The position numbers were made by a program, and so were the translations under genes. Positions 16,106-32,000 of a stretch of 32,000 nt of DNA are shown here, one piece after another (within the stretch, counting starts at the first letter, position 1; each line of letters opens with the position of its first letter). The stretch is from Planctopirus limnophila DSM 3776 (GTDB taxonomy: Bacteria; Planctomycetota; Planctomycetia; Planctomycetales; Planctomycetaceae), in NCBI RefSeq assembly GCF_000092105.1, contig NC_014148.1:4560001-4592000 (forward strand). Direction: 5' to 3'. The notes under the pieces are model-generated. The model ran no database searches, was not told the origin of the DNA, and saw only the letters and a list, made by a program, of their open reading frames with translations.

Positions 16106-16167
16106 CCAGGCTTTTGCTGGAGCGCTGATTGTTTGGCAGTGGCAAAAGGTCAAGAGTATCCCGTCGA

Positions 16168-16568: not shown

Positions 16569-16606
16569 GACGCTTGTGAATCGGGTGAGTGGAGTGAGTG
16601 GCTGAT

Positions 16607-17473: not shown

Positions 17474-17752
17474 GACGAACAATCCTGGGGGCAGTCGGGA
17501 TGGTGAACTTGTCCTCTTGTTGTATCCGCAATAACGCTGGAGGGAAACTCCGGCGGATAGTCATACGTGATGAAATCCTCTTCAAAAAGTTTCCCGGACA
17601 GCTTTTCGCCACTGACAGATGCAGCTCTCGAAAGGTTCGCCCGATCACTCAAGGGAATCGCCAGAAAGGAGACATTGCCGCCAGATTTTGCGCAACAACC
17701 GCTGATAGGGTGAGAGGCCCGTTCACTCACACTTCTAACGGCGGAAAGCTCC

Positions 17753-19114
17753 ATGCTCACATTTCTGGCAGATACCCTGGCTCGCTGGCAGACACAGGCC
17801 CGTTACCGGCGCCGTGTGAGTGAACAGCTGCTTCAACTGGTCGAGCGAAAAACCTCGCTGAAAGACGACGATGTGGCTGGATGGCAGCAGATCTCGGGCT
17901 CCACACCGCAGAGTTCGCTTCCCGTCGGGAGTGCAAGTGCCTGGCGGGCCTCCCGCAAGCTGCATCTGCGCGATCAAGCCCGGCAACTGGTGACGGAAAA
18001 TCCCCATGCTCGCAACCTGCTGAGGCTCATGGAGATTTATGTGGTGGGTGCCGGTCTTGAACTCACTTTTCAGGCGCATCGTCCGGAAGATCAGGAACTT
18101 GCTAATCAAGCCACCCGGCTGTGGAAGGAGTTTCTCAGTCGGAACTCCCGCCACTTCTCGCCGCGCGAATATGCCCGCCGAGCCTGGCGTGATGGTGAAG
18201 TCTTCCTGCGACTTTTCCCCATGCCCGATGGTTCACTCGAAGTTCGATTTATCGACCCCGAAGCGATCGCTCCTTTGCCTCATGCTCCGGAAGACGAAGG
18301 GATTGTGACTTTACCTGGCGATGTCGAATCGGTGGTGGCCTATCATCATGTTGATCCACTCACGGGCCAGTGGCAAGGTGACCTTCCTGCGGAAGAAGTG
18401 ATTCACACGCGAATGGGCATCGATTCCAACGAACGGCGCGGCATCAGTCTCTTCGCTCCTATCATCGATTCACTGTCCCGATTTGATCACTGGCTGGAGA
18501 CCGAACTGACAGCCCGCAAGCTGCAGGCTTCGCTGGTCTTATGGCGTAAGATTCAGGGTTCACCGGCCCAGCTCTCTCAAATGGCTGAGAGTGGCCATAC
18601 TCCCCGCGAACGTTATCTGCCGGGAAGTATCCTGACGACATCCCATACCACCGATCTGCAGTTCCTTTCGCCCAATACAAACTTTGGTGATGCCGTCCCG
18701 CTGGGTCGATTGCTGCTGCTTTGTGTGGCGGCTGGTGCAGGTCTGCCGGAGTTCATGCTTTCGAGCGACGCCTCGAATGCCTCGTACTCGTCGACGATGG
18801 TGGCGGAAGGCCCGGCCGTCAAGCTCTTTGAGAGTGAGCAGCAGTTCTTTGCCCGTGAGTTCGAGCAGTTGAGCAGGGCCGTGTTACGAGCCGCTGCAAT
18901 CACACGCGGCTGGCCTGAAGATCTGCTCGATCGAATTGTGCCTCACTGGTCATTTCCACAGCTCGTCAATCGAGATCGTCCCCGCGAACGGCTGGCTGAT
19001 GTGCAACTGGTTGAGCAAGGGATTCTCAGCCGGGCTGAAGTCGCCCGCCGCGATCACGCCGACCCACAGACCATGCGGCGTGAACTCAATGAAGAAGCCG
19101 CACCAGTTGCATGA
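17753..19114 (+). CDS. Phage portal protein (lambda-like portal family pattern)
   Basis: 453 aa. The segment RDQARQLVTENPHARNLLRLMEIYVVGAGLELTFQ...ANQATRLWKEFL matches the conserved N-terminal pattern of lambda-type portals (R..aR.L..NnP.a......VvG.G, then W.e). It is the first gene of a head-tail array. Confidence 0.75.
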   Translation: MLTFLADTLARWQTQARYRRRVSEQLLQLVERKTSLKDDDVAGWQQISGSTPQSSLPVGSASAWRASRKLHLRDQARQLVTENPHARNLLRLMEIYVVGAGLELTFQAHRPEDQELANQATRLWKEFLSRNSRHFSPREYARRAWRDGEVFLRLFPMPDGSLEVRFIDPEAIAPLPHAPEDEGIVTLPGDVESVVAYHHVDPLTGQWQGDLPAEEVIHTRMGIDSNERRGISLFAPIIDSLSRFDHWLETELTARKLQASLVLWRKIQGSPAQLSQMAESGHTPRERYLPGSILTTSHTTDLQFLSPNTNFGDAVPLGRLLLLCVAAGAGLPEFMLSSDASNASYSSTMVAEGPAVKLFESEQQFFAREFEQLSRAVLRAAAITRGWPEDLLDRIVPHWSFPQLVNRDRPRERLADVQLVEQGILSRAEVARRDHADPQTMRRELNEEAAPVA

Positions 19115-19150
19115 TACCCATTGCAGTATTCAACTGCGTTCATTGGTATG

Positions 19151-19234
19151 GGGTGGCTGGGGTTGAGCGTCTTCGCGAACCCCCAGTTCATGCCGAAAAT
19201 CGCTGGGGGTTCGAAGACTCAACCCCAGCCACCC
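19151..19234. repeat. Module A element: 84-bp near-perfect hairpin 37 nt after the portal stop
   Basis: The arm gggtggctggggttgagcgtcttcgcgaaccccca pairs with tgggggttcgaagactcaaccccagccaccc. The arms differ only by two cg dinucleotide bulges. The outer gggtggctgggg is shared with module B termini. Confidence 0.85.
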
Positions 19235-19300
19235 ACCGCGTAGTTGTTTATTGACATCCGTATGATCCGTCTCCTGATGCCCGCCAGACGAGCTGGAAAC

Positions 19301-19382
19301 TCTCCCACTCCCCTTCTTTTCCTTTCCTCCTTCTTTCCCTTCTCCCCTTCTCTCCTTTTCACCTTCCACCACCTCACTTCCT
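19301..19382 (+). other. Polypyrimidine (C/T) tract upstream of the protease-scaffold gene
   Basis: tctcccactccccttcttttcctttcctccttctttcccttctccccttctctccttttcaccttccaccacctcacttcctg. It is almost purine-free on the gene strand and ends 15 nt before the ATG at 19398. Confidence 0.85.
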
Positions 19383-19397
19383 GTCAAAAGTCTCCAC

Positions 19398-20303
19398 ATG
19401 CCCACACCACTTGTTGAACATCTGCACGACTGGCATTCGGCCAGCCTCCGTGTCGATCGCGATGCCCGCATGGTTTATGACGTCGCTTTGACGGCCGCTG
19501 AATCGGCCAATGGCTATCGCTATCTCCCCGAAGCTCTGGAAAGTGCAGTCCCGCTCTACGAGCGAAAGCCTGTCTTTCTTGATCATGCTCCCGCCGCCCA
19601 TCGTCCCCGCGATCGCAGTATGCGCGATCTGGTGGGAACCATTCGTGCGGCACGCTACGTCGAAGGCCGCATTCGCGGCGACATTGAAGTGGTCGATACC
19701 GAAGCAGGCCGCATTTTTTTAGGACTCGTGGAAACTCAAAGCCCGGCCCTGGGGATGAGCCATGTCGTGCTTGCCCAGCAGGATCCGGCTGCCAAAACCA
19801 TTACAGCGATTGTCGATGTCATCAGTGTCGATGCTGTCGCTTTTCCCGCCACAGCCGCCACCTTTGCCGAGCAATCGGAAAGTGCGATTCCGCCTGAATC
19901 AACCACTTCCAGCGCCACATGTCACGCAAACCCGTCTTGTGCGAATTCGTGTGCCGCCTGCCAGCCGCAAATCAGTGAACTGACGCAATTGCAGCACGAG
20001 AATGCCGAGTTGCGACAGCAGATCCAGGGACTGCAGGAATCGCAACGCGACCTGCTGCAAACTCAACAAGTCCAGACGCTGCTCGAAGCGGCCCAACTGC
20101 CACCCGACCTGCTCACTCCCGAGTTCCGCCAACTGCTGGAGAAAACACCTCTGGGCCTAAGGCCCGCTCTCATCCAGGAACGCATCACTCTCGCCCGACA
20201 ATGGAGACCCACCCCGCACAGCCTTTCACGAACCTCTCACAGCTCTGCCAACCCGACGGACGCCTCGATTATCGAAACCATCCGCAAACGCTTCTCCCGC
20301 TAG
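19398..20303 (+). CDS. Putative prohead protease fused to a coiled-coil scaffold domain
   Basis: It sits between portal and capsid. The N-terminal roughly 150 aa fit an HK97-protease-like layout (KPVFLDHA...VGTI...GRIRGDIEVVDTEAGRIFLGLVETQSPALGMSHVV). The C-terminal heptad-like region ISELTQLQHENAELRQQIQGLQESQRDLLQTQQVQTLLEAAQ is typical of scaffolds. The call rests on pattern only. Confidence 0.5.
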   Translation: MPTPLVEHLHDWHSASLRVDRDARMVYDVALTAAESANGYRYLPEALESAVPLYERKPVFLDHAPAAHRPRDRSMRDLVGTIRAARYVEGRIRGDIEVVDTEAGRIFLGLVETQSPALGMSHVVLAQQDPAAKTITAIVDVISVDAVAFPATAATFAEQSESAIPPESTTSSATCHANPSCANSCAACQPQISELTQLQHENAELRQQIQGLQESQRDLLQTQQVQTLLEAAQLPPDLLTPEFRQLLEKTPLGLRPALIQERITLARQWRPTPHSLSRTSHSSANPTDASIIETIRKRFSR

Positions 20304-20364
20304 TCACGCCCTCTCAGTCAATGCTCATCTCCTGATTCCTTTCTCTCACTCTTGAAGGCTTCTC

Positions 20365-20862
20365 ATGCTTCCAGCACTTCGTTTCCGTTCTGGTCAGGTT
20401 CAGCTCCAGCGCTGGCCCGTTGCCAGTGAAACTGTCATCGAGCCAGGCGATCTCGTCTATTTCGATGGCACCTCGATCAAGCCCGCTTCGTCATTCCCCT
20501 GGACAACCAATCTCGTCACCACTCAGACAAACTTTGCCGCTGCCTTCGTGGGTGTGGCTCATCAGGCTTCGGCAGCGGGGCAAAATGCTCCCGTCTCAGT
20601 CGATATCAGCCCGCTCGCCACTTACGAATATGCGGTCTCATCCGGCAACTACACCGTGGGCCAGACGATCGCAGTTCATGGGGCTCCCAGTGCCTTGTCG
20701 AAGCAGCAGTTAGCCCCTTCTGTCAGTACGGCTGCCATGGCCCGGGCGGCTGAATCGGTGAGCAGCGCGACGACACTGCGTGTCAATTTTGCCAGTGCGT
20801 ACAGCGTCGCCAGCAGCAACATTCACGCTCAGCTCGGTCCAATTCCTGCATCCGAAGCGTAA
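20365..20862 (+). CDS. Putative head decoration / capsid cement protein (DUF2190-like pattern)
   Basis: 165 aa, immediately upstream of the capsid gene. The pattern GDLVYFDG...AAFVGVAHQASAAGQNAPVSVDISPLATYEYAV recalls DUF2190-type decoration proteins. The call rests on position and pattern only. Confidence 0.4.
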   Translation: MLPALRFRSGQVQLQRWPVASETVIEPGDLVYFDGTSIKPASSFPWTTNLVTTQTNFAAAFVGVAHQASAAGQNAPVSVDISPLATYEYAVSSGNYTVGQTIAVHGAPSALSKQQLAPSVSTAAMARAAESVSSATTLRVNFASAYSVASSNIHAQLGPIPASEA

Positions 20863-20957
20863 ACCACTCTCGCAGTTGCCTCTCATCCACCTGATTCATC
20901 CCTCTGGCTTCTCCCCTTTTCACCTTCCCCTCTTTTCGCCTACCAAGAACCCCACAC
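20863..20957 (+). other. Spacer S2 with polypyrimidine tract upstream of the capsid gene
   Basis: Bases 20881-20945 read tctcatccacctgattcatccctctggcttctccccttttcaccttcccctcttttcgcctacc, which is strongly C/T-rich on the gene strand. Confidence 0.7.
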
Positions 20958-22151
20958 ATGCCACACCTGCAACCACTCATCGCTTCACTGGGCCCCGAAG
21001 GCTTCTATCACAAGGTCTGCACGCTGCTCAATGAGAAGCAGCTCTCTGTCGATGACTTCAGTTATTACGAACTTGCCGAGGCCTGTGGTGTCCTCCCGGA
21101 GCTGCGCTCGACGCGACCACTCGCTACCGATCTACCCATTCCTGCACTCTTGCGAGAATCCAACCCGGGCGTGAACTCGTCGCTCTTTCAAGTCGTTACG
21201 GCCGAACTCATTGGCCGCAAAGTTCTCGAAGGCTACGAAGATGATTCCGGTTTCATTGGCGATCGTCTTGTCACGGTTCTTCCCAGCCGGGGAAGATCGC
21301 AGAAGCTCGCGGGCTTTCGCGCCTTGAGCGGCCCGACGGAAGTCTCGGAAGGTCATCCCTATGAAGAATCGACCTTCAGTGAAAAATTCATCACGACCGA
21401 AGAAGCCAAGCGCGGCCGCATTCTTTCGATCAATGAAGAGCTGATTGCTTTTGACCAGACGGGCGAAATCAACCGCCGGGCACTGGCCCTGGGCTTCTAT
21501 CTGCGTCAGGAGCGAGAGCGGACGATTGTGCGGGCAGTGACCGATGCCGACGCGGGCCAGCAGCGATTTGTCTATCGACCTTCGGGGCAGGGCCAGGTGC
21601 TCTACAAGGCTGATGGTTCGCATCAGAACGTCATCGGGCCAGACAACATCACCTCGATCGACTTTGCCGAAAGTCTCCCGCTCACCAACTGGGACGACAT
21701 CGACAAAGTGCTCAATTACCGCGCGACACAGATCAAAGACGATCGCATCGATGGTGCTCCGCGACCCATTCTCGTTCCTGCCCGGCAGATACTTGTCCCC
21801 GAAAAACTACGCGGCACCGCGCGCAGCCTCGTGCATGCCAGCGAGATCATCGTCACCACCGAAGACCGCGAAACCCGCCTCGCCAACCCTATTCGCGATC
21901 AGTTCGAAGTCCTCTCGTCCCCGTTCATTGATGAGCAGGGAGGCAGTGCCCTCTCTGCGTGGTATCTGGGCGATTTCAAGCGCCAGTTCGTCTGGACAGA
22001 AATCTGGCCCGTGCAAACCTTCCTCCAGCGGGAAACGAGCGAAGGGGCTTTCGATCGCGATGTCGTCCTGCGGGTGAAAGCCCGTTACTTCGGCGGAGTT
22101 TCAGCCGTCGATACCGTCTTTGTCACCAAGGTCGATGGCAGCGAAGAATAA
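20958..22151 (+). CDS. Putative major capsid protein
   Basis: 397 aa, in the canonical position after portal, protease-scaffold and decoration genes. It is the largest head gene after the portal. The central block SEGHPYEESTFSEKFITTEEAKRGRILSINEELIAFDQTGE resembles capsid-family blocks. No search was run. Confidence 0.55.
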   Translation: MPHLQPLIASLGPEGFYHKVCTLLNEKQLSVDDFSYYELAEACGVLPELRSTRPLATDLPIPALLRESNPGVNSSLFQVVTAELIGRKVLEGYEDDSGFIGDRLVTVLPSRGRSQKLAGFRALSGPTEVSEGHPYEESTFSEKFITTEEAKRGRILSINEELIAFDQTGEINRRALALGFYLRQERERTIVRAVTDADAGQQRFVYRPSGQGQVLYKADGSHQNVIGPDNITSIDFAESLPLTNWDDIDKVLNYRATQIKDDRIDGAPRPILVPARQILVPEKLRGTARSLVHASEIIVTTEDRETRLANPIRDQFEVLSSPFIDEQGGSALSAWYLGDFKRQFVWTEIWPVQTFLQRETSEGAFDRDVVLRVKARYFGGVSAVDTVFVTKVDGSEE

Positions 22152-22219
22152 TCGTTCACTGAACCTTTCAATCCCTCTGTTGTAGACTCTTCAACCATCC
22201 TCGTGCAGGTTTCTGGGCC

Positions 22220-22720
22220 ATGCCGTTCTGCCTTCCTCGACCCCACAGTGATCCCGTCCTACTCGATCTGAGGCCCTTGCCACTCGGCTTCCAGCAATTG
22301 CTCAAGCGGCATGGCATCATCGCCCCGACTCCACCGATGCGTCTGGCTCGCGACAGTCATGGCAAACCGGTCAAAGATGCCCAGGGTCAGCCCGTCCGCC
22401 TGATCGATGAAACCAACGACACCTATCAGAATGAGTGTGAACTCTATCACCAGCGAATCGCAGTCCTGGCGGTCGCTTTTGCCTTAAGGCACGACCCCAC
22501 ATCACCTCTAGCAGGTTGCTGGCCAGTGCTGCAGCAACCGCCCGTCGGAGAATGGACGGCCTGGGCGGATCAACTCTTCGAGACGCTGGTCTCTGCTGGT
22601 TGGCTGGCGGGCGATCTCCTGGCGTCCTGCACAGAGATCACACGTCTGAGCAATCTGATCAGCGATCGACTGGTGGCAGCTCAAGCCTCTTTCTCGGACA
22701 GTGGGAGTTCGACCGGCTGA
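22220..22720 (+). CDS. Hypothetical phage-module protein; may continue to 22875 in the -1 frame
   Basis: 166-aa ORF with coding-like composition. The downstream 51 codons (22721-22875) read well in another frame but have no ATG, GTG or TTG start (see findings). Confidence 0.6.
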   Translation: MPFCLPRPHSDPVLLDLRPLPLGFQQLLKRHGIIAPTPPMRLARDSHGKPVKDAQGQPVRLIDETNDTYQNECELYHQRIAVLAVAFALRHDPTSPLAGCWPVLQQPPVGEWTAWADQLFETLVSAGWLAGDLLASCTEITRLSNLISDRLVAAQASFSDSGSSTG

Positions 22721-22875
22721 ACCCTGCATCGACCACCCGCTCGATCAACTACTACATCCTCCGCTGTTGTGAACGACTCCATCTTGTAGAAGCCAGCTTC
22801 TACGAACTGAGTTTCGAAGAACAAATCCGCCTCCTCGGCTACGAACTCCTCCGCCAGGCCGAAGATGCAATTTAA

Positions 22876-23358
22876 GAATCAACATCCCCCTTCTCCCGTA
22901 GGGTGCCATGCCGCGTCAGCGAAATGCACCAACTCTTCCCCATTTTTCCTTCTGTCCTACCCGCCTTTCCCCCTTCGCAGCCTTCGCGTCTTCGCGCGAG
23001 CTCTCCGAATTTCAAACTCATCCTCACGCGAAGCCGCGAAGTTCTCCAAGAAGATCTGCATGATTCACCACTTCCGCAAATCTCCCGATCTCTAATTCAT
23101 CCGGGTGGCAGGGGTCGGATGTCTTTATCCGCCCCCATTGTCAAAAGCGTTCACCAGCACAAATGCATCGGCAACCTTCCTCACAACTCCCCAGCCACGC
23201 TTCTTAATCACCACGCTCACCTCGAACTTCTTCCCTTCCCCCCCTTTCTGCCATCCCTTTTTTCCTTCTTCCCTTCTTCCCTTCTTCCCTTCTTCCCTTC
23301 TCCCACTTCGCATCTTCGCGCGAAACCATCCATCCCATCACCTTCCCATGGCCTCAGC
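22876..23358. repeat. Spacer S3, a composite of repeat modules
   Basis: Contents in order: module E (22896-22930, ccgtagggtgccatgccgcgtcagcgaaatgcacc), a C/T tract, the module C hairpin (22971-23057), a partial module B element (23103-23198), a C/T tract with an octamer microsatellite, and the palindrome ttcgcgcgaa (23315-23324). Confidence 0.85.
23264..23303 (+). repeat. Octamer microsatellite (ccttcttc) x4 plus one imperfect unit
   Basis: Direct count gives ccttcttc at 23264, 23272, 23280 and 23288, then ccttctcc at 23296. Confidence 0.9.
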
Positions 23359-23631
23359 ATGACCGATCTCCCCGATCTCTCACAAACCACAGGCGAGCCA
23401 CTCACCGAGTCCCAAATCTGCGGCATCCTCGCCCAGATCGATCTCGATATCCTCAATCTCCTCCGTGATGGAAAACTCGCCGCTCTCAAATACTCAGCCC
23501 CAGGAGCCGGCCCGCAGACCGATCGTGCCGCCAACCTTCAGGCTCTCCTCAATGCCCGCGAAAGCTATCAGAAACTCCTCCACAGTCTGCCGCTCTGGCA
23601 AACCTCCGCCGCCGATCTCAGCCACACCTGA
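23359..23631 (+). CDS. Small hypothetical head/neck-associated protein (90 aa)
   Basis: MTDLPDLSQTTGEPLTESQICGILAQIDLDILNLLRDGKLAALKYSAPGAGPQTDRAANLQALLNARESYQKLL. Its size and helical pattern loosely resemble gpW-type head-completion proteins. The upstream 152 codons of ORF 22903..23631 are repeat-derived and were rejected. Confidence 0.5.
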   Translation: MTDLPDLSQTTGEPLTESQICGILAQIDLDILNLLRDGKLAALKYSAPGAGPQTDRAANLQALLNARESYQKLLHSLPLWQTSAADLSHT

Positions 23632-23675
23632 ACGCCAACTCCCCGGCACATCCCTTCTTTTCAGGATCTCACTTC

Positions 23676-23921
23676 ATGCCACCCCCACCGGCTCACGAAC
23701 GACTCGATCGCCTGCTCGACACCTTGCAGTCATTGGCCATTCAGCTCGAACAGCTCAGGGTCTCACTCGAAGTGCTGGTCGAGCTTTCCAAAGACCACGA
23801 AACACGCCTGCGCCTCGTAGAAACTCATCAGCACAGGCTGACACCACTCGTGGGTGGCCTCGTCTTTCTGATCACTTCCATGGCGACTGTCGCCATCACG
23901 CAGTGGTTCACCCGCATCTGA
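23676..23921 (+). CDS. Small coiled-coil protein with a C-terminal transmembrane helix (XhlA-like architecture)
   Basis: The N-terminal heptad region is RLDRLLDTLQSLAIQLEQLRVSLEVLVELSKDHETRLRLVE. The hydrophobic helix is LTPLVGGLVFLITSMATVAITQWF. Confidence 0.55.
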   Translation: MPPPPAHERLDRLLDTLQSLAIQLEQLRVSLEVLVELSKDHETRLRLVETHQHRLTPLVGGLVFLITSMATVAITQWFTRI

Positions 23922-23954
23922 GCATTCTTCGACGCTTTCGATTCAAAGGTCATC

Positions 23955-24347
23955 ATGCCCGCACTTGCCTTCACAGATCTGGTGTCCGCCGATCTGCTCC
24001 TCATGTTTCACGACTGGGGCCAACCCGCCCAATTGCTGGCTGTGCTCGAAACGTCGCCTCACGAGCCACCCAGCCGCACCTGGCTGACGACGAACGACGC
24101 GCCACTCATTGTCCTGCCCGATCACACACTGGCCAATCAGCCCGCGTCCTCTCCTCAAGGCACATTATCAGCAGTCACGCCAGAAACCCGCTTCTTCGTC
24201 CGAGCCAGCACATGGCCTGTCCTGCCCACCGGCGCACTGCTGGAATTATCGACTCCCCATGGAAGCTGGGCCGTCACCCAGATCCATCCACTCCCGGATT
24301 CCGAACTCCTGGTGATTTCAGCCCGTGATCTGGCCCCTGCCGATTGA
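23955..24347 (+). CDS. Putative head-tail adaptor / head-closure protein
   Basis: 130 aa, immediately upstream of the HK97 gp10-like gene. The C-terminal pattern TRFFVRASTWPVLPTGALLELSTPHGSWAVTQIHPL fits head-tail joining proteins. The call rests on position and pattern only. Confidence 0.4.
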   Translation: MPALAFTDLVSADLLLMFHDWGQPAQLLAVLETSPHEPPSRTWLTTNDAPLIVLPDHTLANQPASSPQGTLSAVTPETRFFVRASTWPVLPTGALLELSTPHGSWAVTQIHPLPDSELLVISARDLAPAD

Positions 24348-24388
24348 AGATCTCTTCTCTCTCTTTTCCCCATCGATCTCATCCAACC

Positions 24389-24778
24389 ATGAACCAACCC
24401 CTGGCACTCCGTATTGTGCTCCAACCTCCACCCGCTCCGGGAATCTTTCCCGACTTTCAGCGCGATCAGCTCACTCCTTTCCGCCAGCGACTCGTTCGTC
24501 AGACAGCCAGAAAACTGCTGCAGCGCATTGCCCAGTTGACTCCTGTCGATACAGGCCGGGCTCAATCGAGCTGGCTGCTCGCTGCCCAACAACTCCAGCC
24601 CGAAACAGCCGCCAATACCGCAACTCCCGATCTGCAGATCACGGAAGGAAAAATTGGTTCGCTTTCCATCATCACCATTGTCAATCAGGTGCCCTACATG
24701 CCCTTTCTCGAATTGGGAACCAGCCAGATGTCTCCCTTCGCCATGATCCGGCGGGCACTACTCGAACAGATCCGCTGA
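24389..24778 (+). CDS. HK97 gp10-family neck/tail-completion protein
   Basis: The signature LTPVDTGRAQSSW (PVDTGxLRxS-type motif of the HK97 gp10 family) is followed by VPYMPFLELGTS. I chose the ATG at 24389; the ORF track opens at 24344, overlapping the previous gene. Confidence 0.65.
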   Translation: MNQPLALRIVLQPPPAPGIFPDFQRDQLTPFRQRLVRQTARKLLQRIAQLTPVDTGRAQSSWLLAAQQLQPETAANTATPDLQITEGKIGSLSIITIVNQVPYMPFLELGTSQMSPFAMIRRALLEQIR

Positions 24779-24804
24779 TCTTTTACTGGAGGCGAACTCC
24801 CCTC

Positions 24805-25257
24805 ATGCCCTCACCTGCCCAACTCCAGCACAGTCTCATCGACTATTGGCAATCGGTCTGCCCGGATGAACTCCCCACGCTTTGGCCAGGCCGCAAAGCC
24901 GATCCTCAATCGTGGCAGCAATGGTGCGAACTCCGCGTCGATAGCTGGACACAGCCCATCCAGAGGCTCGGTCGCTCTCACATCGCCTGCGTCATCACTC
25001 TCCGGCTCTTTGTCAGGCAGATCGCCTCTTCCCCGGAGGCAACTCTCCCTTCTCTGCACAGCCGACTGGAACAACTTCAGACAGTCGTCACTCAGGCCTG
25101 GCACGAACAGACGATTCCCATCGTGGATGATCTTCCTGAGAATTCCGCCAGCATCATCGGCTATCTGCGCGTGGCCGACCTCACGTCTCGATCGATCGAA
25201 ACATCATCTCCCACACTCCTGGGGCGCGAGTTCCTCATCACGGCCCGCACCTCCTGA
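24805..25257 (+). CDS. Putative tail terminator / tail-completion protein
   Basis: 150 aa, between the gp10-like gene and the tube gene. It is the coding-like C-terminal half of ORF 24325..25257; the N-terminal 160 codons overlap the two preceding genes in another frame. Confidence 0.45.
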   Translation: MPSPAQLQHSLIDYWQSVCPDELPTLWPGRKADPQSWQQWCELRVDSWTQPIQRLGRSHIACVITLRLFVRQIASSPEATLPSLHSRLEQLQTVVTQAWHEQTIPIVDDLPENSASIIGYLRVADLTSRSIETSSPTLLGREFLITARTS

Positions 25258-25331
25258 AGTCGACGTCCTGAGGATCGTTCGCGATCCTCGTCAATTCCCA
25301 CCCCCAATATCTCTTCCTATTGAGGCACTCT

Positions 25332-25850
25332 ATGCCCACCTCGGCTCTCGTTCGAAATCTTCGCGATGGGGAACTTCTCATTCGCGATGGCACGACTCCC
25401 ACACCCAAATCGCTCATTGTCCTGCTCGATGAAGGGGATCTTTCCTGGACAGAACGCTCACGCACCATCGAGATCAAAGATCGTGGCTCAATTGCACAAG
25501 GCCATCTCCGCAAAGGGGACGACGAATCGGTCTCGCTCTCGTTTACTGCCAAGTGGACACAGCTGCTCAGTCAATCGATTGAACCAACCGATCCCCTGGC
25601 ACTCTACGAGTTCCTCACCTTTCAGCCACCAGCCAACATCACCAGCACGTCACCCGCCGGCCAGCAACAGACACTCGAACTCGTCTTCACCATTCACGAT
25701 CCCGCGGGCGGCTCCAGCGAAGTCGTCACGTTTCTGAATGTCTATCGCGAAACTCTCACACTCTCCGAAGGGGCTGAAGCCAACACCATCGCCTTCGCCG
25801 GCCGCGCCTTCCAGACAGCACCACAAATCACCCGCTCCACCCCGGAATGA
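25332..25850 (+). CDS. Putative major tail (tube) protein
   Basis: 172 aa, the last gene before the tape measure. It is beta-rich with DGTTPTPKSLIVLLDEGDLSWTERSRTIEIKDRGSIAQGHLRKGDDESVSLSF, a pattern common in siphovirus tube proteins. Confidence 0.5.
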   Translation: MPTSALVRNLRDGELLIRDGTTPTPKSLIVLLDEGDLSWTERSRTIEIKDRGSIAQGHLRKGDDESVSLSFTAKWTQLLSQSIEPTDPLALYEFLTFQPPANITSTSPAGQQQTLELVFTIHDPAGGSSEVVTFLNVYRETLTLSEGAEANTIAFAGRAFQTAPQITRSTPE

Positions 25851-26041
25851 ACACTTCGTTTTCCTCTTCCCGTAGGGCGCCATGCAGCGCCAGCGAAATG
25901 CACCAACACTTCCCCCTTTTTCCTTCCCGCCTTCCTGCCTTCCCGCCCTCTTCCCTTCACTCCCTTCGCAGTCTTCGCGCGAAGCAATCCCCACTCCCAA
26001 CTATCCACCAACAACCCACAACTCCCTCATCGAGTCACCCC
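25851..26041. repeat. Spacer S4, a composite of repeat modules
   Basis: Contents in order: module E (25869-25904), a C/T tract (25909-25968), the 12-bp palindrome cttcgcgcgaag (25973-25984), and module F (atccccactcccaactatccaccaacaacccacaactccc, about 25987-26030). Module F recurs at about 28050-28092. Confidence 0.85.
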
Positions 26042-26773
26042 ATGTACTCCGAATCCTTAACCCTCCGCATTCTCGCCGATAGCTCCGAGCTGGAATCGCG
26101 GCTGGGTGATCTCGGGCGGCAACTCAGCTCTTTGCAATCCTCGACAGATCGGCTCTCTTCATCTGCTTCCCGCCTAACTGGCGCGTTTCAAATGACCAGT
26201 GCCATGAACTCTGTCGAACGTCTCAGCCGGAGCCTGCAAGCCCTCCAGCGCCAGGTTCAGCAGATCTCAGGCACACCCCTCAACCTCAATGTCAGCCCGG
26301 CTCTGGCGGCCATTGCTTCCGTCAGCCGAGCACTCAGTCAACTGGCCCGACAAGTCTCGACATTCCCTTCGATGACTGGCTCAGGTTATCTCCCCCTGGG
26401 CACAGGTTCTTTCCTGCCGACTGGCACCGGTTCCTCGTATGGTGGTGGCTCGACGACGAACACACGCCGCTTTGCCACGGGTGGCCTCGTCACGGGCCCA
26501 CCCGGCATCGACCGCATCCCGGCTCTCCTCACGGCTGGTGAATACGTCCTGAGTTCCGAAGTCGTGCAGCGACTCGGGCTCGGAAATCTGTCTCAACTTT
26601 CAGCCGCTGCTTCCGGCTCTTCAAGAGCCATCGCTCCACCAGCCACCGTGCAGAATTCCCATCATCAATCGATTGGCGAACTGCACGTTCACATGGCACA
26701 GACCCTGGATCTCGCATCGTTCACCGAGAATCTGGCCGCCGATGCCCAAAGACTCCGCCATCGCCGCGGCTAA
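26042..26773 (+). CDS. Short tail tape measure protein
   Basis: 243 aa. The N-terminal part is helical and low in complexity (LESRLGDLGRQLSSLQSSTDRLSSSASRL...LQALQRQVQQI). The C-terminal block RRFATGGLVTGPPGIDRIPALLTAGEYVLSSEVV matches the conserved tape-measure C-terminal motif type (G..G.D.vPa.l..GE.V). It directly follows the tube gene. Confidence 0.65.
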   Translation: MYSESLTLRILADSSELESRLGDLGRQLSSLQSSTDRLSSSASRLTGAFQMTSAMNSVERLSRSLQALQRQVQQISGTPLNLNVSPALAAIASVSRALSQLARQVSTFPSMTGSGYLPLGTGSFLPTGTGSSYGGGSTTNTRRFATGGLVTGPPGIDRIPALLTAGEYVLSSEVVQRLGLGNLSQLSAAASGSSRAIAPPATVQNSHHQSIGELHVHMAQTLDLASFTENLAADAQRLRHRRG

Positions 26774-27316
26774 GATCCTTTTCCCATTTCTACCTGTCGC
26801 CAAATTTTGCCTCTTGATTCCCTTCGCAGCCTTCGCGTCTTCGCGCGAAACGATCGAACGAAAACTCATCCTCACGCGAAGCCGCGAAGTTCTCCAAGAA
26901 GATCAGTATGAGTGTCTCATGTCCCATCTGGAACCCTCGCCCACGTCCTCGTGGGAGAGGGCAGGGTGAGGGTCTTTTCACTCTCTTATTGTGTTGTGTG
27001 CCATGCTTGCAGCTCTGGGCAAGCATGTCTTCGCGCCGGGTGGCAGGGGTCGGATGTCTTCATCCGCCCCCTGGTCCTTCGATTTCACCAGCACGAATGC
27101 ATTCAGTACGTTCCTCACTACTCACACCAAAAGACCTGGGGGCAAACGAAGACGTTTGACCCCAGCCACGCTTCTTAATCCCCACTTTCACCACCGACTC
27201 TGTCCCTTTCTTCCTTCCTGCTTTCCCGCCTTCTGCCCTTCCTGCCTCTGCGGCTTCGCGAGAGACCTCTGAATTCATCTCTTCTCTTCCCCCCATCCTC
27301 ATCGGCTCACGACATC
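26774..27316. repeat. Spacer S5, a composite of repeat modules
   Basis: Contents in order: the module C hairpin (26819-26904, including the palindrome ttcgcgcgaa at 26840-26849), module D (26911-26978), a module B element with both termini (27038-27169), C/T tracts (27181-27250 and 27277-27300), and a half C arm cggcttcgcgagagacc. Confidence 0.85.
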
Positions 27317-27757
27317 ATGCCCCTCCAATTCCACCCGGCGATCGCCCGATCGACCGCCTGGTTCTCGCTCCCGCGGCCCATCGTTTCTCTTCGTGTGCAG
27401 GACGTTTGGGATTCCGAGCGATTCAAGTCTCCACTGATTGATGGCCAGCGCACGGTCGGTCATTCGCAAGGTGGCTCGACGATTGTCATTCAAGGACAGG
27501 TCGCTGCCCAGGCGGGCGAAGTTCGCTTCACGGAAGCCGAGATGCTGGCCACACTGCTTTCTTTGCGTGAGGCCCTGCATGTGGGCGAGTCACAGCCCAA
27601 GTTCGACTTTGTGCTCTTTTTCGATCCCGTCACCCACGAGCGGCAATACTTCCAGGAGTGCTCGACGACCCGTTTGGAATGGGATCTCTCCGAAGCCAGC
27701 CTCTACACCTATTCCCTCACGATCCAGGCCGACGATCCCCAGATTCACACTGCCTGA
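27317..27757 (+). CDS. Putative distal tail protein (Dit-like)
   Basis: 146 aa, the first gene after the tape measure. It contains SPLIDGQRTVGHSQGGSTIVIQGQV. The call rests mainly on position. Confidence 0.4.
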   Translation: MPLQFHPAIARSTAWFSLPRPIVSLRVQDVWDSERFKSPLIDGQRTVGHSQGGSTIVIQGQVAAQAGEVRFTEAEMLATLLSLREALHVGESQPKFDFVLFFDPVTHERQYFQECSTTRLEWDLSEASLYTYSLTIQADDPQIHTA

Positions 27758-28106
27758 GAAACCTCTGCACGAAAAATCATCCTCACGCGAAGCCGCAAAG
27801 TTCTCCAAAAAGATCAGCCGACTCTTCTGTAGGGCATGCTCCCGCATGCCACAGAATTCGTGTCTCATGTCCCCCTCTGGAACCCTCGCCCGGTCTGCCG
27901 GGAGAGGGCAGGGTGAGGGTCTTTTCCCCATTTCTTAAACGTCTTGATCTAACGCGCTATGCAGAGCCAGTAACCTGCACCAACCTTCAAACTTCAAACA
28001 TCAAACATCAAACTTCCCCCTTCTTCCCTTCGCTGCCTTCGCGCGAAACCATCCACTCCCAACCCTCCACCAACAACCCACAACTCCCCCAACCCCGGCT
28101 CACTTC
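27758..28106. repeat. Spacer S6, a composite of repeat modules
   Basis: Contents in order: the module C right arm (27776-27816), an E-like hairpin ggcatgc/gcatgcc (about 27832-27849), module D (27860-27925), a heptamer repeat wtcaaac x4 (27986-28013), a C/T tract, the palindrome ttcgcgcgaa (28038-28047), and module F (about 28050-28092). Confidence 0.85.
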
Positions 28107-29918
28107 ATGCGCAACATCTTTCTCCATGCCGGCAGCCCCTCAGCAGCACCTCTCCTCATCGACCATCGCCTCGTCTCTGGCTGCTGGTTCGAATGGCTTC
28201 GGCAAGGGGGCTGCGGCCCAGGCGAACTCGAATGCAATCTCCCGCTCGACAGCCCACTCTTCGCACCTGGCGATTTCGTCTCGATCGAAGATCATCTCGG
28301 CACCCGCTGGTACCTCGGACGCATTGAAGAACATCTCACCCGCTGGCCCAACCGCGCCATTATTCGCCTGGAAGGCCTCGCAGTTGAACTGGGCGAAGTC
28401 TTCCCCGGTGGCTTCGCGAACAACGAAAGCGATGCTCCTGATCCCTATCGACTGGGCCTCACCGAAGGTGGATTCTCCTTCGATCCCGATTACGGCAACG
28501 AATCCTTCGCCTTCGCCTCACGGCCCGAAGACGTCGTCCGCAAACTGCTCGAACTCGAAGAGATTGCCAGCACCCAGATCGCTTTCCCGTCCGAAGAAAT
28601 CACCAACACCACTACTCCCGTCCCTTTGGAAAGCTTCAAGTTCCATGGGGAAGAATCGCTCCGTTCGATTTTCAAAGATCTCGCTCTGAGGGCTGGCAAT
28701 GCTCCCTGGGGTGTCGATGAAATGGGCCGCTTCTTTTTCCGTGCCGGGCAGGAATTCGCGACACAGACCATTCCTCGAACTTCGATCATCCAGCTTGAAC
28801 ACTCCCGCAGTCTCGATCAGATCTTCAATCGCGTCCTGCTGACCGGGGCCTACCTTTATCTTCCCAATGGCCAGCCTTATCGCTGGCGCGGCAACTATAC
28901 AGAACCCACCAGCCGGGCTTTGTATGGCGAACGCCGCATTCGCTTGTGGGTGCCCTGGATTCGTACGGCTCAGGATGCCCGTGGCTTCCTCAAGGAATTC
29001 TTTTCGCAATATGCCTTTCCCACAGGCCGCCTGCAGGTGGAGTCGGTCGCTTCGACCCAATGGTTGCCCCCCTGGAAAACGCGCTATCAGATGGAAGGCT
29101 TTTCGGGATCCACCGGAGCCACCTGGCAGGCCGACAAGCTCCGCATCGAGTTCAATGAAACACCCGTCTACAGGCTCGAACTCGGGCCCGTTAATCCGCG
29201 AACTCTCTGGCCAGAACCCGATCACGATGAACGCTGGCCCCTCGCACCCACCAGCGAACTCCCCTCTGGCTTTGGTGGCGAAGACATCCCCCTCCCCTGG
29301 CCTCCCGGCGGCGGTGGTGGTGGCGGCGGTTCTTCCTCCAGCAACGATTCTCTCACCTCCGACGAACTCTCCTCCTCGCTCGAGCTCTCTTCGAGTGAGG
29401 CCTCATCCACTCTCGACAGTTCCTCGGATTCCAGTTCGTGGCTCACCAGCGATTCAACTGGCGATTTAACCTTCACCAGCAGCGATGCCAGTCACTCCTC
29501 ATCGGCCACATCCAGCAGCACAGAAAACTCCTCCAGCTGGCACTCCTCTTCGCTCTGGTCTTCTTCTGAGTCTCTCGAAAATTCATCATCGAACAGCGAT
29601 TCGCTCTCCAGCGATCCCCTTTCAAGTCAATCCTCCAACCAAGAAACCACCTCCAGCGAAGAAACACCCTCTAGCACAGAATCAGCAGCCACCCCCACAT
29701 CATTCGCACTTCCGACGGACGAACCAACCTCCACCCTCTCACCTCCCACCGATTCACCCACATCCTTCGAACCCCCTCACTCATTCGATTCGACAGAGAC
29801 CGCTCCCCTCACGATCAGCAGTGAAGAGTCCGAATCTCCCTTCACTGAATCCTCCGCATCCACCGCCAGCGAATCGTTAGAACCCCCCGCGAGCGCTCCT
29901 TCTGAAGATCTCCCTTAA
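28107..29918 (+). CDS. Putative tail hub/fibre protein with a C-terminal acidic Ser/Thr-rich low-complexity tail
   Basis: 603 aa. The N-terminal roughly 390 aa is globular-looking and sits in the position of a tail hub/Tal protein. A GGGGGGG hinge follows, then about 200 aa dominated by S, T, E, D and P (SSSSNDSLTSDELSSSLELSSSEASSTLDSSSDSSSW...). Confidence 0.55.
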   Translation: MRNIFLHAGSPSAAPLLIDHRLVSGCWFEWLRQGGCGPGELECNLPLDSPLFAPGDFVSIEDHLGTRWYLGRIEEHLTRWPNRAIIRLEGLAVELGEVFPGGFANNESDAPDPYRLGLTEGGFSFDPDYGNESFAFASRPEDVVRKLLELEEIASTQIAFPSEEITNTTTPVPLESFKFHGEESLRSIFKDLALRAGNAPWGVDEMGRFFFRAGQEFATQTIPRTSIIQLEHSRSLDQIFNRVLLTGAYLYLPNGQPYRWRGNYTEPTSRALYGERRIRLWVPWIRTAQDARGFLKEFFSQYAFPTGRLQVESVASTQWLPPWKTRYQMEGFSGSTGATWQADKLRIEFNETPVYRLELGPVNPRTLWPEPDHDERWPLAPTSELPSGFGGEDIPLPWPPGGGGGGGGSSSSNDSLTSDELSSSLELSSSEASSTLDSSSDSSSWLTSDSTGDLTFTSSDASHSSSATSSSTENSSSWHSSSLWSSSESLENSSSNSDSLSSDPLSSQSSNQETTSSEETPSSTESAATPTSFALPTDEPTSTLSPPTDSPTSFEPPHSFDSTETAPLTISSEESESPFTESSASTASESLEPPASAPSEDLP

Positions 29919-29974
29919 GCCAATCAGCAACCTCTCTCGGAATCTTCTTTTCCCACCTCGAAAGCGCCACGGAC

Positions 29975-30925
29975 ATGTTCTATCGTTCGACCACCGATCA
30001 GCAATGGTCGCCGCTCGATCTCGAAAACCTCTACGCCGGACCGCAAGGTTCCGCCTGCTGGCTCTTAGGTGGCGGCCCTTCACTCACCACTCTTCCACTC
30101 GAAAAAATTCGCTCGTCGCTCGCTCCTATCATGGCCATCAACCTCGCAGGTCATGGCCACATCATCCCCGACTTCTGGACAGCCTACGACCCCACCACAC
30201 GCTTCCTCCCGGCCAACTATCGCACTCCCCGCACTCTCAAATTCATTCACAAAAGACGGGCCATGGATCTCCTTCCCGGCGACACCTTCAAACTCTGCGA
30301 ATGCCCAGGTGTGGTCTTCTTCGAACACGAAAAACGCAACCACTCCCGCTCCTTCTCGTCAGCCGCCACACGCATTCTCGACTGGAATGATTCCTTCATT
30401 CAGGCCCTCGATCTGCTCCTGCATCTCGGCTTTCGCACCATCTACCTCGCAGGCTGCGAACTCTACATCGCTCCCTCGACGGAACTCCAGCAACAGGCTC
30501 AGCAACACGGCCTCATTTATCAGCCCGGCCAATCGCTAAGGCTCTTTCTCGAAGCCTGCCGCAGCCAGGACATCGCCCCGGAACTCACGGAAACCGCCAT
30601 CACCGGCCCTCAATATCACTTTGATGAAGCCAAGCCCCTGGCAGCGACCCTTCGTACCGACGACCACTACCTGCGCACCGTTCAACTCCTCAGACTCTCA
30701 CGCCAGGCACTGACCCAAACGGGCCTGAAGCTCATCTCCGTCACACCTCACAGTCGCCTCAACGATTTCTTCCCCTATCAGACCATCGCACACGCCCTCG
30801 AAGATCTCGCCCACATCCAAGGCCCACCCGCACATCAGCAAACCCGCGGCCTCTACACCGGCCAACCCATCCTGGCCCCACAACTCACCTGCCCCATGCG
30901 CGACCTCAAAGCCCCCATCGCGTAA
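29975..30925 (+). CDS. DUF115 / MptE-like (Maf-type) putative glycosyltransferase
   Basis: CWLLGGGPSLTTL...APIMAINLAGHGHIIPDFWTAYDP and FIQALDLLLHLGFRTIYLAGCEL match the GxGPSL ... PD..v..D ... G.D layout. That layout is shared by DUF115 motility-accessory-factor and sialyltransferase-like enzymes. Confidence 0.55.
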   Translation: MFYRSTTDQQWSPLDLENLYAGPQGSACWLLGGGPSLTTLPLEKIRSSLAPIMAINLAGHGHIIPDFWTAYDPTTRFLPANYRTPRTLKFIHKRRAMDLLPGDTFKLCECPGVVFFEHEKRNHSRSFSSAATRILDWNDSFIQALDLLLHLGFRTIYLAGCELYIAPSTELQQQAQQHGLIYQPGQSLRLFLEACRSQDIAPELTETAITGPQYHFDEAKPLAATLRTDDHYLRTVQLLRLSRQALTQTGLKLISVTPHSRLNDFFPYQTIAHALEDLAHIQGPPAHQQTRGLYTGQPILAPQLTCPMRDLKAPIA

Positions 30926-31267
30926 GGAGTCACCAGCATGCGTTTCACCTTCTGACGCGTGACGAGACATGGGGTATTCGGTATTTGGAATTTGGGTGGC
31001 ACGTCCCTGAAGGCTTTGCGAAAGGGCGTGGTCTTTAGGTTTTTCTACATCAACTCTGATGTCCAGCCGCTTGGCCCGTCCAACTGCCCCTCTGGAACCC
31101 TCGCCCGGTCTTCCGGGAGAGGGCAGGGTGAGGGTCTTCTGCCTTTGTTGTAGGGTGCCATGCAGCACCAGCGGAATGCACCACCTTCCTGCCTTCCCAC
31201 CTCATTCCCTTCTTGCCTTTCCGACCTTCCTCTCTTCCAACCTTCTTCCCTTCTCCGGCCCCCGTTC
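30926..31267. repeat. Spacer S7, a composite of repeat modules
   Basis: Contents in order: module D (31087-31140), module E (31149-31182, tgtagggtgccatgcagcaccagcggaatgcacc), and a C/T tract (31183-31260) ending 8 nt before the ATG at 31268. Confidence 0.85.
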
Positions 31268-31975
31268 ATGCACAACCCCCTCGCCCGCCAGGTGACAGTC
31301 GTCATCCCGGTCTATGGCAGCCTCGATCATCTCCAGAAATGCCTCACTTCACTCCTCGCCTGGCATCATGTTCCCATCGTCGTCATCGATGACGGAAACC
31401 CACCCGGCACACTCCAGCACTTCGCCTCAATGCCCGGCTTGAAAATCATCCGGCAACCCCATTGCGGCGTCACCCAGGCCTGGAACAACGGCATCGCCGT
31501 CGTCCGCACACCCCTCGTCATCCTGCTCAACAGCGATGTCATCACCAGCGGCCCCTGGATCGACCAGATCCTCGCACCACTGCAGAAGTCAGAATCACCA
31601 CACTTTGTGCCCGCTCAACTCACTGGTGCTGCCTGGCAATCGCCCACTGCCTCAGCCAGTGTCGGCATGCCGGCCCAAAGCCTGCTCGCCGGCTGGTGCC
31701 TCGCCTTCCGCAAGTCACTCTGGCACTACTTAAGACACTTCGACGAACGCTTCCGTCACTGGTATTCCGATACCGATTTCCAAAAGCGTCTGCTGGCCAG
31801 CTCCTCCGCAGATCACACTTCCACAAGTCCTATCCGCTGCATCGACACACTCCCATTGAGTCACGCACTCCACGCCTCGACCCGACATCTCCCCGCTCGC
31901 TCACAACTCTACGCTCTCGATCGAACCGCTTACTTCCAGAAGTGGCAGCCTGAAGGCCATCGACCATGCACCTGA
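31268..31975 (+). CDS. GT2-family glycosyltransferase
   Basis: VTVVIPVYGSLDHLQKCLTSL, VVIDDGNP, GVTQAWNNG and ILLNSDV (DxD-like) give a GT-A fold signature. I chose the ATG at 31268; the 36 codons upstream in ORF 31160..31975 are repeat-derived. Confidence 0.7.
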   Translation: MHNPLARQVTVVIPVYGSLDHLQKCLTSLLAWHHVPIVVIDDGNPPGTLQHFASMPGLKIIRQPHCGVTQAWNNGIAVVRTPLVILLNSDVITSGPWIDQILAPLQKSESPHFVPAQLTGAAWQSPTASASVGMPAQSLLAGWCLAFRKSLWHYLRHFDERFRHWYSDTDFQKRLLASSSADHTSTSPIRCIDTLPLSHALHASTRHLPARSQLYALDRTAYFQKWQPEGHRPCT

Positions 31976-32000
31976 TTCAAGTCATCAACGTCGGCCAGAT
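31966..32000 (+). CDS. Start of a further ORF, truncated by the window end
   Basis: atgcacctga overlaps the GT2 stop codon and reads MHLIQVINVGQ. Only 11 codons are visible, so no function can be assigned. Confidence 0.3.
   Translation, partial: MHLIQVINVGQ

Follow-up and report, generated by a model that had tools for sequence, protein, structure and literature searches.

Mycobacteriophages, including Che8, Corndog and Myrna, have transferases of their own that glycosylate capsid and tail-tube proteins, as shown by mass spectrometry (Freeman et al. 2023, summarised in PMC12363180). A comparable gene arrangement occurs on the chromosome of Planctopirus limnophila DSM 3776, within the 32,000-nt stretch analysed here (contig NC_014148.1, positions 4,560,001 to 4,592,000 of the forward strand), which is referred to as the window and to which coordinates refer unless another locus is named. 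In this window, a cluster of phage-type head and tail genes leads to a baseplate hub protein with a Ser/Thr-rich terminal extension as the candidate acceptor, linked to a DUF115/MptE-like gene and two further transferase genes. Both systems combine phage-type structural genes with cytoplasmic glycosyltransferases of their own, which act on structural proteins (a proposal in the case of P. limnophila) and are proposed to coat the particle with glycans. The differences are as follows. Firstly, the capsid and tube are modified in mycobacteriophages, whereas the candidate in P. limnophila is the tail hub. Secondly, the lead enzyme in P. limnophila is DUF115/sialyltransferase-like. Thirdly, the carrier is a chromosomal cluster of the Planctomycetaceae, rather than an infectious actinophage. 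A glycosylated appendage is a plausible interpretation of this locus, with a precedent in the mycobacteriophages.

A second point of reference is provided by the Maf enzymes, which attach CMP-activated nonulosonic acids or Kdo to Ser/Thr residues, and comprise an N-terminal Rossmann-like domain, a central Maf_flag10 domain (PF01973) and a C-terminal helical bundle (PMC11339370). A preliminary description of the window had linked the DUF115/MptE-like protein to these enzymes. They do share a DUF115/MptE-like Rossmann-type domain with a sialyltransferase-like fold, and the cytoplasmic O-glycosylation of Ser/Thr residues on an extracellular filament protein, known for Maf, is proposed here. However, Maf proteins have three domains, ~600 amino acids (aa) and flagellin- or chaperone-like ends, whereas the P. 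limnophila protein is a 316-aa single domain with a helical cap, a ~45-residue family insertion and a sub-cut-off Pfam score, and has neither flagellar genes nor a nonulosonic-acid pathway nearby. Without the N- and C-terminal Maf domains, outside any flagellar context and with one domain rather than three, the protein is not a Maf enzyme proper.

The cluster as a whole resembles the gene transfer agents (GTAs), both those of the RcGTA type in Alphaproteobacteria and BaGTA, VSH-1 and Dd1. In each case a head-tail cluster of ~15 kb lacks replication, integration and lysis modules, is vertically maintained under purifying selection across a family, has partly dispersed genes and encodes a short tape measure; in P. 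limnophila, too, the genes are structural only and embedded among host genes. The difference lies in ancestry: with a lambda-family portal (PF05136) and a Phage_capsid_4 capsid, the cluster appears to have an independent origin. We know of no GTA cluster with a built-in glycosyltransferase module. The hub protein itself is related in form to T4 gp27, Mu gp44, siphophage Tal and VgrG of the type VI secretion system (T6SS), sharing an N-terminal multi-domain fold of 400 aa and a variable distal C-terminal extension. The known extensions of such hubs are nevertheless folded, as beta-helical spikes, fibres or lysin domains, whereas here a low-complexity, acidic Ser/Thr tail ends the protein. This tail recalls the serine-rich repeat adhesins (GspB, Fap1 and SraP), which are cell-wall-anchored, exported through the accessory Sec system, built of true dipeptide repeats and modified by dedicated GtfA/B transferases. 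Both have a long Ser-rich acceptor region beside cytoplasmic glycosyltransferase genes, and a mucin-like adhesive fibre as the product, as proposed here; they differ in sharing no homology, and in that the context here is a virion.

The hub protein and its distal tail

The 603-aa protein encoded at 28107-29918 (+) is almost certainly a baseplate hub, as the preliminary description had recognised. Its residues 1-400 (28107-29306, +) adopt the four-subdomain fold found at the N-terminus of gp27, Mu gp44 and Tal, according to an AlphaFold model based on an alignment of 40 homologues (pLDDT 88.7). Comparing this model with the PDB using Foldseek identified 63 matches at E<=1e-3, with TM values of 0.5-0.66. 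The best was the hub of the Algoriphagus contractile injection system (7aef_q, E 5.9e-16), accompanied by phage Mu gp44 (1wru, E 1.3e-15), diffocin, T6SS VgrG, T4 gp27 and siphophage Tal, over an E range of 6e-16 to 1e-9. Gene order agrees, as the tape measure (26042-26773) is followed by a 146-aa protein and then the hub, both here and in the other loci examined, and there is no sheath-sized gene in the cluster. PHROGs and NCBIfam returned zero matches for the hub, the DUF115-like protein and the 146-aa protein. The 603-aa protein is the central hub at a siphovirus-type tail tip, and the C-terminus of such hubs is the usual site of a distal, host-facing extension.

The extension in P. limnophila begins at a Gly8 hinge (residues 401-408; 29307-29330, +). 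The preliminary description was right that a hinge is present, but had given it as Gly7 at 29295-29330, a span that includes the preceding PLPWPP. From the hinge to the stop, an acidic, Lys/Arg-free tail of 195 aa (29331-29918 including the stop codon, +) is the candidate O-glycan acceptor, judged by its composition and a proxy for disorder. It consists of 38.5% S, 12.3% T, 10.3% E, 6.7% D and 8.2% P; these sum to 76%, as the earlier claim of a tail dominated by these five residues up to 29918 implied, with S+T accounting for 51% and D+E for 17%. The composition of residues 1-400 is ordinary (S+T 12%, K+R 9.5%), and at that K+R frequency a stretch of 195 residues without K or R has a chance of ~3.5e-9. 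The tail has a pI of 4.05 and a net charge of -33, and falls on the disordered side of the boundary in a charge-hydropathy plot; it is probably disordered. Its Ser/Thr enrichment is unmatched in the window: S+T density is 0.59 per 100 aa for the tail, against 0.42 for the next-highest open reading frame (ORF), which is a spurious overlapping one, and the maximum S+T per 30 aa is 0.67 in the hub, against 0.43 in the other cluster proteins. The SSSxxS repeats attributed to the tail proved to be Ser-rich low complexity rather than a tandem array, because TRF finds only one weak 18-nt match of 2.4-2.8 copies (29632-29681).

The tail evolves differently from the domain that carries it. The hub as a whole is 94-95% identical to its Planctopirus hydrillae and P. 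ephydatiae counterparts, and within Planctopirus the identity of the tail is 67-91%, against 94-98% for the hub domain, with the ends of the tail conserved. Correspondingly, dN/dS between Planctopirus species is 0.19-0.50 for the tail, compared with 0.08-0.09 for the hub domain. The reading frame is genuine, being contiguous with that of the hub domain and maintained in Planctopirus orthologues, where all indels are in-frame. In the P. ephydatiae hub (P0123), the tail contains a species-specific expansion of SSLW/SSLM units, SSLWSSSLWSSSLISSSLMSSSLMSSSLM..., and hence its length shifts by repeat slippage with frame and composition kept. The combination of in-frame indels, maintained composition and drifting sequence therefore marks the tail as a selected, fast-evolving distal module.

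Across the family, a Ser/Thr-rich, K/R-poor tail is present in 82 of 118 hub homologues and at 51 of the 68 loci with sufficient flanking sequence (~70%), the set in which linkage was also counted. Tail length has a median of 204 aa and a range of 41-330. The remaining hubs instead have a Ser-rich linker leading to a small folded domain, which is a ConA-like lectin (Laminin_G_3) in one case and Cys-rich in others, and some Ser-containing acidic linker is kept in nearly all hubs. The occurrence of folded alternatives such as Laminin_G_3 at the position of the tail suggests a receptor-contact module. The post-hub region is the variable, outward-facing module of this hub family. At one locus (L012, 12103-15460), the hub ends in a repeated 'LQSGQFTSTIKTSQ' domain instead of a plain Ser/Thr tail, and 3.3-3.4 kb separate its gene from the DUF115-like gene.

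Genes downstream of the hub

The hub gene is followed by one encoding a 316-aa DUF115/MptE-like protein of sialyltransferase fold, a putative glycosyltransferase by its profiles and model, and the core last gene of the module (29975-30925, +). Viewed through Pfam alone the assignment is sub-threshold, as PF01973 (MptE-like) aligns over profile positions 25-166 of 171 with 16.7 bits (E 0.0067), below the cut-off of 34.6. However, PF01973 is matched by 18 of 40 family members at E<=0.1 (best E 5.5e-6). A family profile search of 1.84 billion representative sequences identified 76 proteins at E<=1e-30 and 1097 at E<=1e-3, and among remote relatives (~1e-22 to 1e-32) PF01973 was matched by 32 of 48, with a best E of 2e-13. 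Aligning the family with these remote relatives using hhalign gave a probability of 100% and an E of 9e-53 over 251 columns, the Planctomycetaceae proteins being distinguished from other DUF115 relatives by a family-specific insertion of ~45 residues (166-210). Within the family, G32, G34 and P35 of the GGGPS loop are invariant, G33 and S36 occur in at least 90% of sequences, and YHF and SRL(N) motifs are also conserved. As the PF01973 matches in the family, the profile and hhalign searches and the structure matches agree, the superfamily is settled: the DUF115/MptE-like call of the preliminary description is confirmed, and we are highly confident that 29975-30925 encodes a true but divergent member. 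Planctopirus proteins lack the C-terminal extension of 40-80 residues seen in most homologues (alignment columns 345-445), which is a variable linker ending in a conserved '...I/V-x-E-x-G'.

The activity of this protein is likely that of a transferase. Its AlphaFold model (pLDDT 89.1) is one alpha/beta domain with a short helical region. A structure search of BFVD gave 16 matches at E<=1e-3. Several are viral proteins annotated as MptE-like or DUF115 (E 1.6e-8 to 1e-6), and a herpesvirus sialyltransferase was matched at 1.4e-3. Foldseek identified zero PDB matches at E<=1e-3, where the best was human ST6GALNAC2 with CMP (6apl; probability 0.95, TM only 0.35), and the family profile matched PDB sequences only through a chance TPR hit at E 0.8. 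The lead to the sialyltransferases nevertheless stands, because the BFVD and profile evidence adds to this weak PDB match. These same weak fold matches are what might be expected if the protein were not a glycosyltransferase at all, but rather a nucleotide-binding enzyme of another kind, for example a pyrophosphokinase of the MptE type, or a structural or receptor-binding component in the post-hub slot. PF01973 is named for an archaeal pterin diphosphokinase, the window protein scores below the Pfam cut-off, and siphophages usually encode receptor-binding proteins in this slot. Yet other remote relatives are repeatedly fused to GT2, Gly_transf_sug (DXD), TcdA/TcdB, GT29, GT9 or CST-I glycosyltransferase domains, the best structure matches are sialyltransferases and viral MptE-like/DUF115 proteins, and two more transferases follow in two thirds of loci. 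An identity outside the transferases is very improbable.

The first of these additional genes encodes a GT2-family glycosyltransferase (31268-31975, +), identified by PF00535 at E 9e-15 (55.4 bits against a cut-off of 23.3, residues 46-145) and having a GT-A domain at its N-terminus. Its ORF opens at 31160 inside a repeat element, and as the upstream 36 codons cross this intergenic repeat, the start at 31268 (MHNPLARQ) is the likely one, in agreement with the preliminary description. NCBIfam models for GT2 proteins gave E values of 5e-13 to 1e-7, but the scores fall well short of the equivalog cut-offs, and no specific function is therefore assigned. Orthologues of this gene follow the DUF115-like gene in 46 loci. 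The PHROG matches of the GT2 protein belong to the 'moron / host takeover' category. Overlapping its stop are the first 11 codons of a probable GT1/GT4-type glycosyltransferase (31966-32000, +), the ORF that had been noticed at the window edge. Their product, MHLIQVINVGQ, is identical to the start of a 341-aa GT1-type protein of P. hydrillae (L008:14068-15093), which scores 26.4 bits on PF00534, exactly at the cut-off; both PF00534 and PF13692 are recorded for the orthologue in R. italica. All three transferases are soluble-looking, and their genes overlap or abut at the 3' end of the structural operon.

Evidence for and against tail glycosylation

The preliminary description had named the separation of the tail protein from the transferases in orthologous clusters as grounds for abandoning its interpretation. 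The opposite was found, as every one of the 68 loci has the DUF115-like gene downstream of the hub gene (at a distance of 3.4 kb in one), with GT2 and GT1 genes directly after it in approximately two thirds. Where these two are absent, the DUF115-like gene is the last of the cluster and borders on host genes that are unrelated or convergent. Base composition tells a similar story. GC skew in the window is ~0 up to ~19 kb, then -0.15 to -0.38 over 19000-32000 (-0.15 to -0.4 per kb in Planctopirus). At third codon positions, the genes for the hub, the DUF115-like protein and the GT2 enzyme reach -0.45 to -0.62, and in P. hydrillae (L008 1000-16000) the skew domain ends ~1 kb after the GT1 gene. 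In R. italica the same cluster has skew of the opposite sign (+0.24 to +0.40), falling to 0 right after GT1. The skew domain extends through GT1, which shows that all three transferase genes have had the same compositional history as the structural genes. The idea that the transferases are chance neighbours was rejected on three grounds, namely the 68/68 adjacency, the overlap of stop codons with the next start, and a skew domain in common.

In the favoured explanation, the three cytoplasmic transferases would act during particle assembly and O-glycosylate a virion protein. The hub tails are the likeliest acceptor, as a Ser/Thr patch of this kind is found in none of the other cluster proteins. 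Three tails of ~195 residues, one from each subunit of a presumed trimer, would be modified, and the tip would then carry a brush of negatively charged, mucin-like glycans, which may make the first contact with a recipient surface or shield the tip. The sugar donor of the DUF115-type enzyme may be CMP-activated and acidic, namely a nonulosonic acid or Kdo, and the particle itself would be a domesticated, GTA-like device. A Gram-negative cell needs no dedicated pathway for Kdo. That the tail is glycosylated by the transferases of the cluster is inferred tentatively, and remains somewhat more doubtful than not. As an explanation of the whole, a phage-derived chromosomal hub cluster with O-glycosylation of the hub tail is the best available, and is held with slightly less than even confidence.

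Several observations weigh against this interpretation. Firstly, the presence of GT2 and GT1 is independent of tail type. Among loci with a Ser/Thr-rich tail, 26 have both genes, five have GT1 only and 12 have neither, and the corresponding counts for loci with a folded C-terminal domain are seven, zero and two (Fisher p = 1). Hence 12 of 43 Ser/Thr-tailed loci are without nearby GT2 and GT1 genes, and seven of nine folded-end hubs keep both. Secondly, loci L041, L048 and L071 retain all three enzymes with only a linker of ~20 residues. Thirdly, the DUF115-like gene is universal whatever the tail type, and therefore not tied to long tails specifically. Fourthly, the PF01973 superfamily includes a pterin pyrophosphokinase, and therefore the fold alone is no proof of transferase activity. 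Fifthly, no sugar-nucleotide or nonulosonic-acid (neuB/pse/leg-type) genes occur in the window, or within 9 kb after the cluster in P. hydrillae, the proxy for the right flank beyond the window edge, where the preliminary description had proposed looking for them. Finally, no terminase was found in the 32,000-nt window. The modules of this system are dispersed in some genomes, and so absence at a locus is not absence from the genome. Co-occurrence nevertheless lends no support to a pairing of acceptor and enzymes, and as GT2 and GT1 do not track tail type, tail glycosylation is a best guess and the link is not demonstrated.

The first three of these observations also favour a different function, in which the Ser/Thr tail is an unglycosylated, disordered polyanionic spacer or bristle, and the transferases act on other virion proteins or on a cell-surface glycan, for instance as the receptor of the particle or to protect the producer cell. 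It is also in keeping with this explanation that, in several species, the Ser-rich stretch plainly serves as the connection to a folded domain at the end of the protein. However, soluble-looking enzymes encoded by overlapping genes at the 3' end, with the composition of the structural genes, fit action on particle proteins at the time of assembly; none of the other cluster proteins offers a comparable Ser/Thr patch (0.43 against 0.67); and nearly all hubs retain some Ser-containing acidic linker. An unmodified spacer is a possibility of real weight, if a doubtful one.

Other genes with a possible bearing on glycosylation occur around the cluster or at its orthologous loci. In a species without GT2 and GT1, a protein with SIS and two CBS domains is encoded right after the DUF115-like gene (L070 8487-9524); this is the layout of the arabinose-5-phosphate isomerase (KdsD/KpsF) of Kdo synthesis, and may be a coincidence. 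In P. limnophila, 3 kb to the left of the cluster (12164-14845), a GT2 gene (PF00535, E 2e-15) is directly followed by one for a PMT_2 / ArnT-like membrane glycosyltransferase (PF13231, E 8e-46). This second glycosylation pair has the layout usual for enzymes that transfer a sugar from polyprenyl phosphate in the periplasm. Further left, a carbohydrate esterase of the SASA (sialate O-acetylesterase-type) family (6333-7514, -; PF03629, E 2e-15) may matter if the DUF115-like enzyme uses sialic-acid-like sugars, although the family is broad.

Conservation and chromosomal setting of the cluster

The hub and the DUF115-like protein each have more than 120 homologues, all in the Planctomycetaceae, including on complete chromosomes of Rubinisphaera, Thalassoroseus, Symmachiella, Planctomicrobium and Lacunimicrobium. 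A scan of one representative genome per species identified 78 cluster loci in 78 species, again all Planctomycetaceae, with the head and tail genes recurring upstream of the hub in the same order. In comparisons of Planctopirus species, the DUF115-like gene has a dN/dS of 0.11; together with the hub domain (0.08-0.09) this gives ~0.1 and points to purifying selection. The pairwise identities of the hub and DUF115-like proteins co-vary (Pearson 0.83, Spearman 0.68) and group by genus.

The preliminary description had read the genes as those of a phage. This did not survive comparison, as the cluster is chromosomal, family-wide and set between host genes: no integrase, repressor, replication or lysis genes occur in it, and host genes abut both ends. 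The window has no terminase, and upstream of the portal gene there is not even a remnant of one, the site being occupied by an ilvE-like host gene. In Thalassoroseus and Symmachiella a terminase is directly upstream of the portal, and the protein is 55-65% identical across genera. Modules can also be separated, with the terminase module of Planctomicrobium SH664 ~230 kb from the hub locus, and the cluster of Symmachiella dynata stopping after the early head genes, with capsid and tail genes away from the portal. A structural-only cluster in single copy, under purifying selection and with dispersed modules, therefore has the pattern of a domesticated element, such as a GTA, rather than of a prophage. 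We consider domestication the probable origin of the cluster, with fair rather than strong confidence, and for the particle itself a GTA-like device is more likely than an infectious phage.

A prophage of the ordinary kind, perhaps a defective one, from a widespread temperate family would account for some of the same data, with the transferases being morons or lysogenic-conversion genes that alter the host surface. Such a prophage would explain the complete phage-type order of head and tail genes, the 'moron / host takeover' category of the GT2 matches, and the occurrence of the cluster in IMG/VR, where three of 2.9 million viral contigs carry it. However, those contigs contain the same ~15 kb, from terminase to GT1, and not larger phage genomes. 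The missing integrase, repressor, replication and lysis genes and the host genes at both ends also argue against a prophage, as do the single copy in each of 78 species with taxonomically coherent divergence, the strong purifying selection and the location of modules at different chromosomal sites in some genomes. A prophage is accordingly an improbable explanation.

In all three genera examined, an ABC/AAA-type ATPase-like gene lies upstream of the terminase together with one or two small genes, which encode proteins of 128 aa in L005 (1-1324), 199 and 141 aa in L084 (7602-9939), and 188 and 149 aa in L085 (8326-10092). SH664 also has a ParB_N protein. These genes may encode a small terminase and regulators of the same system.

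Within the window, the first gene of the cluster encodes the portal protein (17753-19114, +; Pfam Phage_portal_2, PF05136, lambda-family, E 1e-30). A conserved 301-aa head-module protein follows (19398-20303, +), a protease or scaffold by position, which has zero Pfam matches and occupies the same position in 38 loci. The next is a conserved 165-aa head-module protein (20365-20862, +; 28 loci), possibly a decoration protein, whose L005 orthologue has a faint match to Phage_cement_2. After the major capsid protein (20958-22151, +; Phage_capsid_4 E 2e-16, PHROG 133 E 1e-10) come a conserved 166-aa candidate for head-tail joining (22220-22720, +; orthologues in 45 loci), and a tail completion or neck protein (24344-24778, +; PHROG 169 E 2e-13, with a weak HK97-gp10-like match). 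The putative tail tube is a conserved 176-aa protein found in 58 loci (25320-25850, +), its position before the tape measure being the sole basis for this function. The short tape measure protein itself (26042-26773, +) has C-terminal matches to tape-measure PHROGs at E 5e-5 to 4e-3; its ORF opens at 25847, the first 65 codons crossing repeat family D3 (25863-25950). At 1.5 Å per residue, its ~243 aa would correspond to a tail of ~35-45 nm. The 146-aa protein between tape measure and hub (27317-27757, +) has orthologues at 78 loci, where its gene invariably sits directly before that of the hub, and is by position a putative distal tail protein.

To the left of the cluster are host genes for pyruvate dehydrogenase E1 and E2, a LysR regulator, the SASA esterase, an SNF2 helicase, the GT2/PMT_2 pair, a LolA-like protein and the ilvE-like gene (16607-17482, -), which reaches the portal gene. 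On the other side of the cluster, as seen in P. hydrillae, GT1 gives way to a 197-aa ORF without an assigned function, an FHA protein and pseudopilins. A scan for promoters and terminators was uninformative, with zero promoter-like sites and no more terminator-like sites than chance would give. Short repeats (45-170 nt) of at least seven families occupy intergenic gaps of the cluster and the region to its left, at 16148-16571, 22889-23240, 25863-25950, 26847-27210, 27758-27928 and 31087-31228. They falsely lengthen the 5' ends of the tape measure, the GT2 gene and ORF 22903-23631, and probably also broke public assemblies here, as the contigs retrieved with the window's own proteins are 2.6-3.9 kb long and break at repeats.

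The compositional bias of the cluster recurs across the family. In Rubinisphaera and Lacunimicrobium (L004 1-12900; L018 1-15000) the skew is positive, reaching +0.5, and across 37 loci the cluster has a median absolute skew of 0.097, whereas that of the flank is 0.035 (Wilcoxon p 2.6e-5). Skew in the cluster correlates in sign with skew in the local flank (Spearman 0.59, 37 loci), but is several-fold stronger. This extreme, cluster-limited skew hints at a special regime of replication or transcription.

Within the library searched, there was no report of a GTA in the Planctomycetota or of a phage-like particle in the Planctomycetaceae, and nothing relevant on DUF115 in phages. In its most complete form, the interpretation is that the Planctomycetaceae share a family-wide domesticated particle with a core glycosylation module, which makes a mucin-like acidic brush at the tail tip for attachment to the unusual cell surface of planctomycetes. 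That all of these elements hold together is unlikely. Such a particle would be the first GTA-like system in the Planctomycetota. If the tail is glycosylated, virion glycosylation would extend from the capsids and tubes of mycobacteriophages to the receptor-contact organ at the tail tip, and to a new phylum, using a sialyltransferase-like class of enzyme otherwise known for flagellin. It would also constitute a compact system of three enzymes and one acceptor for bacterial mucin-type O-glycosylation. As P. limnophila is genetically tractable, the idea is directly testable. Regardless of glycosylation, these data indicate an undescribed, conserved, phage-derived particle in the Planctomycetaceae, a family in which the mechanisms of horizontal gene transfer, the phages and the biology of the cell surface are poorly known. 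Reading the cluster as a conserved and probably domesticated particle, rather than as a phage, raises its interest instead of lowering it.

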